Assembly: GCA_963807605.1 (NCBI GenBank) | Contig: CAWECG010000001.1 | Coordinates: 448,001 to 512,000, forward strand | Origin: Candidatus Bathyarchaeota archaeon | Lineage (GTDB): Archaea; Thermoproteota; Bathyarchaeia; 40CM-2-53-6; RBG-13-38-9 | Direction: 5' to 3' | Length of the DNA stretch: 64,000 bases | Shown here: in pieces, positions 13,689-42,781 of the stretch | How positions within the stretch are numbered: the stretch's first letter is position 1 | Layout of the letters: each line of letters opens with the position of its first letter | Program-made: the position numbers and the translations under genes | The notes under the pieces: generated by a model | What the model was told of the DNA's origin: nothing | What the model saw: only the letters and a program-made list of their open reading frames with translations | Database searches by the model: none

Positions 13689-13725
13689 TGGTGCGAGGAG
13701 GCGGATTTGGGCACCAATCTACTAG
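13689..13725 (-). repeat. Diverged tRNA-3'-end palindromic (att-like) repeat, copy 5 (outermost)
   Basis: TGGTGCGAGGAGGCGGATTTG-GGCACCAATCTACTAG versus consensus TGGTGCGGGGAGTGGGATTCG-CGCACCAGTTTACCAG. Confidence 0.65.
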
Positions 13726-13835
13726 GAAACTCAGATGAGCTTCGTTGGGCGCAGTAAATAAGGCACTAACACTCAAGCGCACGCCAAAAAAAGAGTAAGC
13801 CCCAACTAAAAGCGGACAGACTGACTGTGGGGCAT

Positions 13836-13982
13836 CTACTTCTTCACCATCGGCTTCTCGCAACATATCAGGGGTCCACAGGTGGGACACGACTCCTCAG
13901 TACATCCCTTGGTGACTGTGACTTCAATATCACAGTCTGGATGATCACAGACGTAGACGTCTCCTTTCTTGTACGTTACCAA
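13836..13982 (-). CDS. 48-aa Cys-rich desulforedoxin-like metal-binding protein (below ORF-track cutoff)
   Basis: MVTYKKGDVYVCDHPDCDIEVTVTKGCTEESCPTCGPLICCEKPMVKK; GGGGTGAG RBS; KG.VY.C...C...L.CC.KPM desulforedoxin pattern. Confidence 0.75.
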   Translation of the reverse strand: MVTYKKGDVYVCDHPDCDIEVTVTKGCTEESCPTCGPLICCEKPMVKK

Positions 13983-14061
13983 ACATTCTCACCCCCTGCG
14001 CTCTATCAATATTAAAATAGCAAGCCCAATTTAACCTATTTGCTGTTTGAAGTGACTACAG

Positions 14062-14592
14062 ATGGTTGACTTGGATGAGCCGGCACCGAATTTCTCAGTA
14101 ACTACGACTAAGGGCAAAATATCACTGTCTGATTTCAAGGGTAAATGGGTGGTTCTCTTCGCTTACCCTGCAGACTTCACCCCCATATGTGAAGCTGATA
14201 CAATCGGTTTCGCAAGAAAGAAGTTCGAGTTTGATGAGTTAGGAGTCCAATTTGTAGGCTGGAGTGTCGACTCAGTCGAGACACACCTAAGATGGATAAA
14301 GGAAATAAAAGATAGAGTTGGAGTGCAGATAGGCTATCCATTAATAGCAGACATCGACAAGAAACTTGCAGAGAAATACGGTATACTCCACAAGACTAAA
14401 GGAGTCACATACAGAGGAGTATTCATAATAGATCCCGACGGCATTTTAAGATTCGCCGCCACCTATCCTCTAGAGGTAGGAAGAAACACAAAGGAAATCG
14501 AGAGAATCATCAAGGTTCTACAAAGGGCCAGAGAGCTCAGTCACCTCAAAGAATTGGACCGGGCAAGAGAACTGAGCAAGTATAATGAGTAG
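14062..14592 (+). CDS. Peroxiredoxin (AhpC/TSA family), single Cys
   Basis: YPADFTPIC, SVDSVETH, RGVFIIDPDG and VGRN. Confidence 0.9.
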   Translation: MVDLDEPAPNFSVTTTKGKISLSDFKGKWVVLFAYPADFTPICEADTIGFARKKFEFDELGVQFVGWSVDSVETHLRWIKEIKDRVGVQIGYPLIADIDKKLAEKYGILHKTKGVTYRGVFIIDPDGILRFAATYPLEVGRNTKEIERIIKVLQRARELSHLKELDRARELSKYNE

Positions 14593-15411
14593 CATCAAGG
14601 TGTAGACCAATCTTTCTAGGTACCGATGGATAACACAAAAAAGCTCAAGACTTTTGAGATCGCTGCCAGAGGTACGTTAGTATGATGACGACGTACGTCA
14701 TGAAGGCTGTAGAATGTTTGAACATCTTGAAGGAGTGTCGCCAATTGCCGCGCTGATTTCACCCATGGACATATGGTAAAAAATATCCGTTATTAAAGAA
14801 CCTAAACCTACTATTGCCTAAACAAGAGATACATTCCAAGCAAGTGCTTTCTTCTTTTCAGACTTGGACACGGAAATCAGCTCAGATGGAGGGAATATAA
14901 TCTCACTTTAATCTCTTAGGATTTAGGGATTGGTCATTCACGACTACGAACAAACCTCGAAAAATCTAGGAGATTAAGCGGACTCTCGTCCTAATGATTG
15001 TGCCCCGGAAAGCGTTTGTGCTAAGGCTGATGAGGGGGTATAGATGACTAGCGCTATGAGTGATGGAATGAATGTCACGATTAGTGCCGTTATGAGTTGA
15101 TGTTGCCACAGCAGGTAGAAAGCAGCTAAGCAGTACCAACGTCCTTGAAGACTTTAAGTGGATGGATTTCATGGTAGCGCGCGCGAATCTACCTTCATCA
15201 TAAACGCTATGATTAGCTTCCTAATCTGCGCAGATTAGCATTTAACGCAGCAACAATTATCATACAGTTCCCAAGGAACTCCAAGTAAGTATAAGTATGG
15301 CATATATACGCGCGTACATGGAGAATGCGATTAATCGACACGTAATGTTTAATATGCGACGGACTATTCGGTGGAGTTTCAACCTAGAAATTTGGAGTAC
15401 AGGATCGATGA

Positions 15412-15717
15412 TTGACCTTGGCACGTCTTCTGGCCTTCGTAGACATTTTTGTAGAGTCACCCACTATGGACGACGTCATCAAAGCTCTCGAGCAATTCCC
15501 TAACGTAGAAGAACTCTACTTTGTAACAGGGGAATTCGACATTGTCACACTTGTCTCAGCAGCAGACATAGAGGAATTCCGGGACTTTCTGAAAAACAAG
15601 ATTCTGAAGATAAAAGGCGTAAAGAGCACAGTATCCTCCATCGTGCTAGAGACACACAAAGGCCACAGACACAGAAGCCACGCAGAACCTGCAGCATCCA
15701 AATCGACCTCGCAGTAA
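15412..15717 (+). CDS. Lrp/AsnC ligand-binding (RAM) domain protein without HTH
   Basis: LAFVDI, VEELYFVTGEFDI and IKGVKSTVSSIVL. Confidence 0.8.
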   Translation: MTLARLLAFVDIFVESPTMDDVIKALEQFPNVEELYFVTGEFDIVTLVSAADIEEFRDFLKNKILKIKGVKSTVSSIVLETHKGHRHRSHAEPAASKSTSQ

Positions 15718-15804
15718 CAGCAACCTTACTTATGCATCGAGGTTGAATCCTTCAATCCATACTATTGATGAAAATTCTCGAAGAGAGTTTGGTGTTGAAC
15801 CGAA

Positions 15805-40160: not shown

Positions 40161-41123
40161 ATGACAAGAAGAATCTATGAAAATGTTCTGGAAACAATCG
40201 GTCAAACACCACTGGTGAGACTGAATAAACTGGGCAAGGATACAAAGGCAACCATCCTTGCCAAGCTTGAGTCTCGAAATCCAGGTGGAAGCGTAAAAGA
40301 TCGGATCTGCCTGAGCATGATTGAGGAAGCTGAGAAACAGAAGCTACTCAAACCCAGCTCAGTCATAATAGAGCCCACCAGCGGCAACACAGGCATAGGC
40401 TTGGCGATGGTTGCTGCGGTCAAAGGCTACAGACTAATCTTAACAATGCCAGATACAATGAGTCTGGAAAGAAGAACTCTGTTGGCGGCATATGGTGCTG
40501 AGTTAGTCTTAACACCTGGAGCCAAGGGCATGAAAGGAGCTATTGAGAAGGCTGAGGAACTTGCCGAAACCACTCCGAACTCTTTCTTACCGCAACAATT
40601 CAAGAACCTCGCTAACCCTAAGATCCACAGGGAAACCACAGCAGTTGAGATATGGAATGACACCGAAGGCCAAGTAGATATTCTCGTTGCTGGCGTGGGA
40701 ACAGGCGGAACTATCACAGGCGTCGCGGAGGTAATCAAGGCTAAGAAACCCAGCTTCAAAGCTATCGCAGTAGAGCCATTCGACTCACCCGTCCTTTCAG
40801 GAGGAAAGCCCAGTCCTCACAAAATCCAAGGAATTGGAGCCGGCTTTATACCTGATGTTCTCAAACTTGAACTCATTGACGAGATATTCAAAGTAAAGAA
40901 TGAAGAAGCCATCGATACAGCAAGGAGACTAGCAAAAGAAGAGGGAATACTGTGCGGCATCTCTTCTGGAGCAGCAGTATTCGCCGCAATTCAAATCGCG
41001 AAAAGACCAGAAAGCGAGAACAAACTCATAGTCACAGTACTGCCTGACACTGGAGAACGATACCTTTCATCAGCACTATTCAAGGATTTACATGAAGCAG
41101 CTGCAAAACTGCAGGTCTACTAA
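40161..41123 (+). CDS. cysK: Cysteine synthase A
   Basis: NPGGSVKDR (PLP Lys), [31 protein letters not shown] and PDTGERYLS. Confidence 0.96.
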
Positions 41124-41137
41124 CACTACAAAGAAGA

Positions 41138-42448
41138 GTGAATGTGATGAAACGCAGAATAGAAACATTGGCAATACACGCTGGACAGGAAGGCCCAGAC
41201 CCAGCAACAAAGGCAAGAGCCGTACCCATATACCAAACAACATCATATGTCTTCAACAATACAGAACATGCCGCCAACCTCTTTGCTTTGAAGGAATTTG
41301 GAAACATCTACACGCGAATGATGAATCCGACGACTGATGTCTTTGAGAAGAGAGTCGCTGCTATCGAGGGAGGAACAGGAGCGTTAGCGGTAGCATCAGG
41401 ACAGGCCGCCCAGGCTCTAGCTCTTTTGGCTATCACGCAGGTTGATGATGAGATTGTTTCTGCAAATAACCTGTACGGAGGAACATATCAGCAATTCCAC
41501 TACACCTTCTCTAAACTGGGAAGGAACGTAAAGTTCGTCGACTCCACCAAACCTAGTGAATTCAAGAAAGCGATCACTACAAAGACAAAGGCAATATATG
41601 CTGAAACGATTGGCAATCCCAAGCTGGATGTACCTGACTTTGAAGCTCTCGCCAACATAGCTCATGATGCAGACATTCCATTTGTAGTCGACAATACTGT
41701 TGGCATAGGACTTGTTAGGCCCATAGAATACGGTGCAGACATACTTACTCTATCTGCAACCAAGTACATTGGTGGACACGGAACCTCAATCGGCGGCATT
41801 ATTGTGGACTCTGGAAAATTCAACTGGAACAACGGCAAATTCCCTGAATTTACCGAACCTGACCCCAGCTACCATGGGCTCAAATACTGGGACGCGTTTG
41901 GAAACCTTCCCGACCTGGGAAATATCGCCTTCATAACCAAGACAAGAGTGCAATTGCTCCGAGATCTAGGTCCCGCCTTGAGTCCGTTCAACGCCTTCCT
42001 ATTCCTTCAAGGCCTAGAAACTCTACCATTAAGAGTAAAGAAACATTCTGAAAACGCTCTCAAAGTAGCTCAATATCTAAAGGAACATCCACTAGTTGCT
42101 TGGGTCAACTATCCCGGCCTGAAAGATCATCCAAGCCATGAACTCGCAACCAAATATCTCAAAGGATACTATGGAGGGCTAGTTGGTTTCGGCATAAAGG
42201 GAGGATTAGAAGCCGGAAAGAAGTTCATCGAGTCAGTGAAACTGTTGTCCCATCTCGTCAACATAGGAGATGTAAAGAGCCTCGTCGTTCACCCCGCATC
42301 AACAACCCATCAACAATTGACAGCAGAAGAACAAAAGGAGACAGGAGTTACAGAAGACTACATCAGACTATCTATAGGCCTAGAGAACATAGATGACATA
42401 ACTGATGATATAGACCAAGCCCTAAAGAAAGCGGCAAAACCGACCTAG
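41138..42448 (+). CDS. metY: O-acetylhomoserine/O-acetylserine sulfhydrylase (aminocarboxypropyltransferase)
   Basis: [29 protein letters not shown] and [10 protein letters not shown]. Confidence 0.92.
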
Positions 42449-42510
42449 AAATCCCCTATGAGATCAGTGAAGTACTGTACTTCTGGGAAGCTGACATACT
42501 TCTTTTTCTG

Positions 42511-42642
42511 TTGTGTGTATATGCCCTAATAGTCATAGGTTTCGGCAACGTCGGTAGATCATTTCTGACCATGATAACAGAGGAGAAGGAGAAAATCGCC
42601 AAGAAATTCAATTCTGAACTGAAAACCGTGGCGCGCTGGTAA
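42511..42642 (+). pseudogene. hom: Truncated 5' end of homoserine dehydrogenase
   Basis: MCVYALIVIGFGNVGRSFLTMITEEKEKIAKKFNSELKTVA-RW*: Rossmann GFGNVG start of HSD after cysK-metY; ends at GCGCGC beside the tRNA 3' end. Confidence 0.75.
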
Positions 42643-42644
42643 AT

Positions 42645-42781
42645 TGGTGCGGGGAGTGGGATTCGAACCCACGAAGGCCTACGCCACAGGGTATCCTAGG
42701 TATATCTTGATACCCCCTAAGCTTGACACATCGCGTCATCCGCGATGCCCTGCCCCTTAGGCCAGACTCGGGTATCCCCGC
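42645..42781 (-). tRNA. tRNA-Leu(TAG) with two BHB introns (30/31: 42723-42748; 37/38: 42693-42715) and encoded CCA
   Basis: Acceptor GCGGGGA/TCCCCGC-A-CCA, D-arm, anticodon stem CAGGG/CCCTG, long variable arm, GTGGGTTCGAATCCCAC; both introns fold as bulge-helix-bulge; mature length 88 nt. Confidence 0.93.

Follow-up and report, generated by a model that had tools for sequence, protein, structure and literature searches.

Tandem copies of a tRNA-Leu 3' end in a Bathyarchaeia genome as likely junctions of a XerC/D-like integrase family, with most intervening modules lacking an integrase

Why does the 3' end of one tRNA-Leu gene recur, always in the same orientation, between blocks of metabolic genes that carry no integrase? 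The question is raised by a 64,000-nucleotide (nt) stretch of a Bathyarchaeia genome (G000:C1:448001-512000, hereafter the window; genome G000 comprises 2.65 Mb in five contigs), in which the last 21 nt of tRNA-Leu(TAG) are found again five times, all co-oriented, with spacings towards the tRNA of 13791, 4965, 6723, 676 and 2801 bp. We consider it likely that these repeats, numbered outward from the tRNA in Table 1, are recombination junctions of a Bathyarchaeia family of XerC/D-like tyrosine integrases, Int1, that targets the 3' end of tRNA-Leu genes. A preliminary description had proposed successive site-specific integration at this tRNA of modules without mobility genes, which our comparisons support, and had called the result an integron-like platform, which they do not.

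The array itself is genuine. Junctions 1 and 2 are identical over 48 nt, and a Markov-shuffled null yielded 0 junctions in 2.4 Mb versus 16 in the genome at one threshold, 11 of them outside the window. The recurrence reported in the preliminary description thus stands, with corrections of detail: the positions it gave for the two exact copies, 39837 and 39161, mark where a longer repeat of 48 nt begins, the 21-nt copies themselves starting at 39844 and 39168; the third copy matches 20/21 at 32445 rather than 19/21 at 32447; and the outer copies are diverged as described (18/21 and 17/21), the fourth core starting at 27480 rather than 27473. Core mismatches outward from the tRNA number 0, 0, 1, 3 and 4, so divergence does grow with distance, but because the core of junction 4 matches the tRNA-Leu end of another lineage, the gradient is not simple ageing, and we rejected core divergence as an age clock for this junction. 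Junction 5 is not taken as the established outer boundary of the array. Although a draft genome with short repeats might invite the suspicion of an assembly artefact, the copies are shorter than 50 bp and have unique flanks, an independent contig (L183) shows the same arm-to-cysK link, and the junction motif lies on more than 120 contigs from other metagenomes, so that we regard this explanation as negligible.

Neither a tyrosine recombinase nor Cas1 was found in the window, in agreement with the earlier failure to recognise an integrase there. Elsewhere the genome has five tyrosine recombinase matches including Int1, and this matching enzyme, found by the recombinase search that had been proposed, was taken as support for action in trans. 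Int1 lies in a 5.5-kb element that is closed by a junction and whose proximal arm starts with the same bases as the window-junction flank. In autonomous elements of this kind, an operon of int1 and a DNA-binding-like gene of 174 residues lies beside a tRNA, and both element ends have an arm that includes a TAC-NN-GTA box. Among 32 homolog loci (43-100% identity, some redundant) from a family of 2039 proteins, the operon adjoins an intact tRNA-Leu or tRNA-Ser end in 29, two further loci being cut by contig ends. The distance between this tRNA end and the start of int is 568-631 nt, except for 921 nt in a single broken copy. The box is found at the tRNA end in 28 Int1 loci, and it has a counterpart, at the mirrored position, in the distal arm of Int1 elements. 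An Int1 element displaced from its tRNA was never seen in the homolog loci examined; in one genome (G312) Int1 sits at the tRNA and is followed by four junctions, and it likewise heads an array on contig C3 of G000.

The catalytic residues of Int1 are invariant (R163, E166, K190/191, H266, R269, Y301), as is D292 at the His/Trp-III position, and Pfam assigns a SAM and an integrase domain. Its best profile models are XerA, XerC and XerD, all below cut-off. For the 174-residue partner, the structure model (pLDDT 69, pTM 0.32) has two short helices followed by a long one and a terminal part resembling a winged helix, and a fold search returned weak matches only (E>0.1); by analogy with the SNJ2 operon (PMC5861418), we infer that it may bind the outer TAC-NN-GTA boxes. 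No conjugation genes were seen in annotated Int1 loci. The recombinase behind the window junctions is probably of the Int1 family, encoded elsewhere in the same genome.

The same 3' end is carried by five tRNAs of G000, which appear to be the five Leu isoacceptors (the other four anticodons were read by eye). The tRNA-Leu of the window is missed or miscalled by ARAGORN when unspliced and gives no Rfam call; with its introns of 26 and 23 nt removed, ARAGORN calls an 88-nt tRNA-Leu(tag). At C3:273315, a tRNA-Leu(CAA) has an apparent intron inside the T-arm, that is, within the recombination site.

The preliminary description read each spacer as arm-14 nt-arm. The 15/16 inversion on which this was based holds for the arm against the tRNA flank, but it does not hold at the junctions, where left/right complementarity is 12/16 (39844), 13/16 (39168), 6/16 (32445), 11/16 (27480) and 10/16 (13689), and the statement was overdrawn. 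Inverted arms of 18-26 bp at both ends are confined to close Int1 elements; diverged elements and the majority of modules lack them. At junctions in general, what is left on the proximal side is usually no more than the 7-nt acceptor end; an intact proximal box is present in 0/161, and an exact search of metagenomes for a two-armed junction returned 0. The junctions are mostly one-armed rather than palindromic attP sites, with only the tRNA-distal arm universal, a conservation that is partly built in because the search patterns require this arm. The sequence variation is read most simply as a core site in which two arms of about 11-13 bp flank a crossover of 6-8 bp, rather than as a duplicated or spacer block of 14 bp; such a layout would resemble those of loxP and dif (11-6-11, PMC8371274). 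Where three tRNAs have TTG in the T-loop, the adjacent junction reads TCG, and three junctions read CCC at those positions, completing the inverted repeat inward. A position-4 variant was non-discriminating as to the side with which it travels (60/67 vs 37/44).

This geometry also bears on a casposon-type origin, in which Cas1 would have mobilised elements whose terminal inverted repeats are the arms, duplicating the 14 nt of target now seen between them. Casposons do duplicate 14 bp and are known to insert at tRNA-Leu (PMC4779613, PMC6977970), G000 encodes a solo Cas1 (C3:803495-804703), three metagenome loci have a Cas1 homolog close to a junction, and in one relative (G003) the junction and tRNA share a rare variant. 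However, in 8/25 pairs of a tRNA and its neighbouring junction the two 14-mers are not the same (some of these sites are decayed, and the three TTG/TCG cases are included), as is also true in G321. Conservation of the proximal side extends over about 7 nt only, and in diverged Int1 elements the distal arm does not repeat the proximal end in inverted form. Moreover, the duplication in M. mazei comprises the last 4 bp of the tRNA and 10 bp downstream, not the T-stem (PMC6977970), and the Cas1 of G000 resides in an element of its own, whose duplication and inverted repeats are unlike those of the array and which belongs to a family of about 60 copies, none of them between positions 13 and 43 kb of the window. 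The three complete junction-to-tRNA Int1 elements (5.5, 12.9 and 16.3 kb) have no Cas1 match. With the 14-mer unfaithful, the Cas1 family separate and Cas1 missing from complete elements, we rejected the casposon reading of the window repeat as very unlikely. The Cas1 element itself (C3:796433-805412) holds Cas1 (402 aa) between two sites of the roughly 60-site family, which show a 14-15-bp duplication and short CAC/CGA-type inverted ends and often lie next to a tRNA-end mimic; no polymerase gene is evident in it.

We then considered what lies between junctions. Among 58 junction-bounded module types, 0.24-14 kb in size, 55 lack Int1, and the three that have it are all beside a tRNA; module loci were at most about 15-20 kb, which under-samples large elements. 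Most inter-junction segments have no int1 and have shed the proximal box, while the distal arm stays intact. One and the same segment can be found beside different neighbours and at more than one tRNA-Leu gene: a 644-bp module has three different neighbour pairs, a 4.0-kb module lies at two tRNAs, and 19 module starts have at least two different left partners. These recurrences bear on ordinary decay, whereby the modules would be dead remnants of autonomous Int1 elements that lost the integrase after arrival, and the array a scar. Proximal-arm remnants of 7-9 nt at four window sites, a post-insertion deletion in hom, the chimeric junctions and mosaic modules, and the well-known tandem re-use of att sites (PMC6563490, PMC5704250) all fit decay. 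Integrase-less modules with the same ends at other tRNAs and neighbours, in contrast, require movement after integrase loss, and two window junctions remain identical over 48 nt; we therefore hold decay alone to be quite unlikely.

If the repeats are Int1 junctions, as we favour, crossover would occur in the 3' strand of the T-stem, and Int1 acting in trans, or from a neighbouring element, could excise and re-insert one-armed cassettes, each insertion restoring the tRNA and displacing older cassettes outward. More speculatively, an intact proximal box may discourage or block the next insertion, such that only trimmed cassettes would stack; the asymmetry would look no different if Int1 elements simply stayed for a short time. 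Cassettes may originate mainly by deletion and cargo exchange within elements, often at (CG)n motifs, with decay following later. A fuller scenario would make the array a functioning analogue of an integron assembled from other components: a visiting Int1 and its partner would drive one-armed cassettes out of and back into tRNA-Leu genes, box loss would license stacking, and recombination at secondary sites would convert core genes, aglB for instance, into cassettes that supplant the original. We put this scenario forward tentatively and consider it rather unlikely.

The aglB module is where direct capture of host genes can be weighed, namely excision by Int1 between a junction and chance chromosomal look-alikes. 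aglB is a core gene and here out of context, the arm of junction 4 is fused to its stop codon, a similar short sequence lies just 3' of native aglB in G001, and several junctions have degenerate left halves. Microhomology deletion explains junction 4 equally well, however, the truncated hom of the window is a later deletion, and a modest enrichment of (CG)n motifs at cassette ends (13/116 vs 5/129, p=0.047) points to another joining process; we judge such capture unlikely. The window aglB is the only full-length copy in G000, the native site (C3:1001174-1001645) retaining an 82-codon remnant, whereas G001 and G002 retain aglB there. With N-terminal identities of 61-71% among the remnant, the window protein and the relatives' AglB, we lean towards a copy acquired from a relative over simple translocation, although 82 residues do not settle the matter.

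The gene content of the window modules is as originally named (Table 1), and their histories differ. The cysK-metY-hom cassette recurs at another tRNA-Leu in L183 with the same start and 87.6% nucleotide identity over 2802 bp; there the cassette measures 3679 bp and hom is intact, while the window pseudogene is frameshifted and cut by a deletion of about 880 bp at a short GCG overlap. We therefore rejected truncated hom as a capture boundary. At the start of the cassette, window positions 39942-39965 hold the 3' fragment of another tRNA, of which L183 has a CCA-ended version. The glutaredoxin module was not found as a whole unit in 400 class genomes, its gene having homologs in 3/400, junction-adjacent in none. 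A junction precedes the Lrp ortholog in G003, not in G001.

At junction 3, the sequence to the left matches G000 C2:56049-56193 (89%) and contig C283 of G001 (78%), both directly adjoining a zinc-ribbon integrase. The zinc ribbon is C-terminal in this second family of tyrosine integrases, which shares the tRNA-Leu end as its target but has an arm of another sequence; its sites in G000 are C2:56049, C2:79755 and C4:442138, and its integrases C2:56253-57335 (broken) and C3:391884-393149. In module 5, the thiamine pyrophosphate (TPP) riboswitch upstream of thiC lies at 24053-24161 on the minus strand (Rfam RF00059, 61.8 bits), and G001/L220 has DNA 96% identical to the thiC block (22514-24217) in different surroundings; in the window the block begins and ends at (CG)n motifs. 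The motif GCGCGCGC is 17-fold over-represented in G000 and clustered in variable regions; in the window it occurs at 12513, 15177, 22514, 24225, 30720, 42631, 44037, 45304 and 47506, coinciding with several homology breakpoints versus relatives.

Table 1. Features of the tRNA-Leu array and the Int1 locus (window positions unless a contig is named)
Feature	Coordinates	Strand	Remarks
tRNA-Leu(TAG)	42645..42781	-	primary target site; contains introns at about 42722-42747 and 42693-42715, their borders placed by splicing in silico
Truncated tRNA-proximal arm	42636..42644	+	9 nt left, outer TAC-NN-GTA box lost; L183 cassette end differs by one base
Cassette 1	39865..42644	+	cysK 40161-41123, metY 41138-42448, hom pseudogene about 42521-42632
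Junction 1	39844..39882	+	21-nt tRNA end and 18-nt distal arm, exact
Cassette 2	39189..39843	+	676-bp period; glutaredoxin-like gene 39453-39779
Junction 2	39168..39206	+	exact
Module 3	32466..39167	+	Lrp, E1, E2, LplA, E3, CBS fragment
Junction 3	32445..32483	+	core 20/21, distal arm exact; chimeric, left side from second integrase family
End of second (Zn-ribbon, about 400-420 aa) integrase element	32320..32444	+	by sequence match; integrase gene gone
Module 4	27501..32444	.	aglB (27505-30249, -) and metallo-beta-lactamase-fold gene
Junction 4	27480..27518	+	core 18/21, as tRNA-Leu end of another Bathyarchaeia lineage; degenerate arm overlaps aglB stop
Module 5 (mosaic)	13710..27479	.	peroxiredoxin, AsnC-type gene, kdpABC, two ubiA, thiC with TPP riboswitch, P-type ATPase
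Junction 5	13689..13727	+	core 17/21; outermost, decayed; left flank resembles flank at other junctions
Int1, XerC/D-like tyrosine integrase, 324 aa	G000 C3:769377-770351		with 174-aa upstream gene beside tRNA-Leu(GAG)

The arrangement is not peculiar to the window tRNA, so that the idea of a single dedicated platform gives way to one general to the tRNA-Leu genes of the lineage. Several of the junctions of G000 outside the window are co-oriented with tRNA-Leu genes, and some have no evident anchor. The motif occurs in 31/401 class genomes, nearly all of the same order, and exact matches in GTDB genomes number 21, all Bathyarchaeia. At the orthologous tRNA, G001 has an unrelated cassette of 3.4 kb and G002 a different set of genes, and the same module can be found at different tRNAs and beside different neighbours, which bears out the predicted gain and loss of modules among relatives. 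We rejected a viral origin: neither the junction nor Int1 was found in IMG/VR, and phage records give only about 25-29% matches. A 97-kb island (C3:354686-452182) extends from tRNA-Leu(CAG) to a junction sharing a 50-bp flank; at the same site L183 has only the cysK cassette and a few genes.

Several observations weigh against Int1-driven movement of modules. Two window junctions are chimeric or decayed, the outer two modules are mosaics with parts from other systems, and only one of the five window modules, cysK-metY-hom, was found whole elsewhere; glutaredoxin and pyruvate dehydrogenase genes are present in relatives without junctions. Int1 occurs in only 19/401 class genomes, its query found no match in the draft genomes G001, G003 and G027, though these have arrays, and it has Asp292 at the His/Trp-III position. 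Classes of modules with the same left flank can be mere native tRNA flanks, and the patterns used to collect junctions demand the distal arm. The evidence is all comparative, with activity, circles and empty sites none of them observed. The small circles that had been predicted were not seen in contigs of four public runs on 23.5-43.4 kb, where joints between repeats were repeat matches only, with a short side of 25-33 letters and uncovered parts proving nothing. The data fit hitch-hiking in cis, on an Int1 element that has since left, as well as they fit movement in trans.

Among known systems, the array fits tandem accretion of integrase-less elements, close to that of cis-mobilizable elements (CIMEs) and tycheposons, and not an integron. 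As in the CIMEs of Streptococcus ICESt1/ICESt3 (PMC5704250), att sites are kept, integration and transfer genes are lost, units stack at one gene end, and a related autonomous element uses the same site, CIMEs being moved by the tyrosine integrase of a related element. Unlike CIMEs, the units have an archaeal host, no conjugation module seen, a tiny size, large numbers (55/58 types without an integrase), reshuffling among tRNA-Leu isoacceptors and an asymmetric site with one arm trimmed. Archaeal tRNA arrays (PMC6563490; integrases PMC8371274) share the tRNA 3'-end target, short att sites, site re-use and an intact, non-suicidal tyrosine integrase with SAM and catalytic domains, but their elements are defined by carrying an integrase, which most units here lack. 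Tycheposons of Prochlorococcus (bioRxiv 10.1101/2020.12.28.424599) similarly combine transient integrase elements beside a tRNA with islands in which partial tRNA copies occur throughout and metabolic cargo accumulates distally; in contrast, the cargo blocks here are precisely arm-bounded and recur as units, and the integrase lineage is unrelated.

In SNJ2-type systems (PMC5861418) the integrase operon includes small coiled-coil/winged-helix partners, which the modelled 174-residue protein may resemble; the tRNA target is shared and so, if Int1 acts as proposed, is action in trans on integrase-less elements. Int1 differs in its Glu-I (E166) and Asp292, where SNJ2 has Gly/Ala at Glu/Asp-I and Ala/Val at His/Trp-III, in having one 174-aa partner rather than two, and in its non-haloarchaeal host. 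With integrons (archaeal: bioRxiv 10.1101/2022.02.06.479319) and Acinetobacter pdif modules (PMC6449649) the array shares one-site, recombinase-less units, reordered among genomes and shuffled by a tyrosine recombinase sited elsewhere. Unlike in integrons, there is no IntI-type integrase (Int1 scores 40.7 bits on TIGR02249, cut-off 265), none is fixed beside the array (the window has none, and an array-heading Int1 is part of a mobile element), attC hairpins are absent, given complementarity of 6-13/16 and usually only a 7-nt acceptor end, and the cargo is multi-gene, with its own promoters and in both orientations. The recombinase is also a mobile visitor, not the host XerCD, and the entry site a tRNA; found in so few class genomes and scoring below the NF040815 cut-off, Int1 is not a housekeeping XerA acting on a chromosomal dif in all relatives. 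Thus the integron comparison of the preliminary description finds no defining integron feature. Family 2 casposons (PMC4779613, PMC6977970) resemble the array in their tRNA-Leu 3' end, tandem insertion and an apparent 14-nt block, but their duplication lies elsewhere, and here internal Cas1 and an exact target duplication are missing, terminal inverted repeats at both ends are limited to close Int1 elements, and the casposon sites of G000 are separate; a polymerase was not evident among open reading frames of L037 and L135, no search for family B polymerases having been made.

Other variable sequence surrounds the array. Positions 30735-30888 hold a sequence of about 80-150 nt with more than 10 partial copies genome-wide and no Rfam match. 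On the other side of the tRNA, about 22 kb (about 44-64 kb) is also variable, without these junctions; an FMN reductase gene there (44053-44754) has a second, 94.6%-identical copy at C2:44342-44947, and in G001 a radical SAM gene is directly followed by genes found at C1:514-518 kb in G000.

Taken together, the locus behaves somewhat like an integron and belongs with known tRNA-island stacking. Stacking of integrase-less elements at tRNAs is already known, which limits the surprise; what is new is how widely it occurs in Bathyarchaeia, that an integrase and a partner could be identified, and that the site is one-armed. For these archaea, which abound in sediments and have not been cultured, no route for exchanging accessory genes has been known, and here small metabolic units appear to move among tRNA-Leu genes. 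The gain is a named enzyme, a partner gene and a site of about 40 bp open to study in vitro, and the one-armed site, together with Int1 elements never having been seen away from a tRNA, suggests a simple rule for the growth of arrays. That aglB has been lost from its native site, while the array holds a divergent copy, indicates that such islands can take over a core function.

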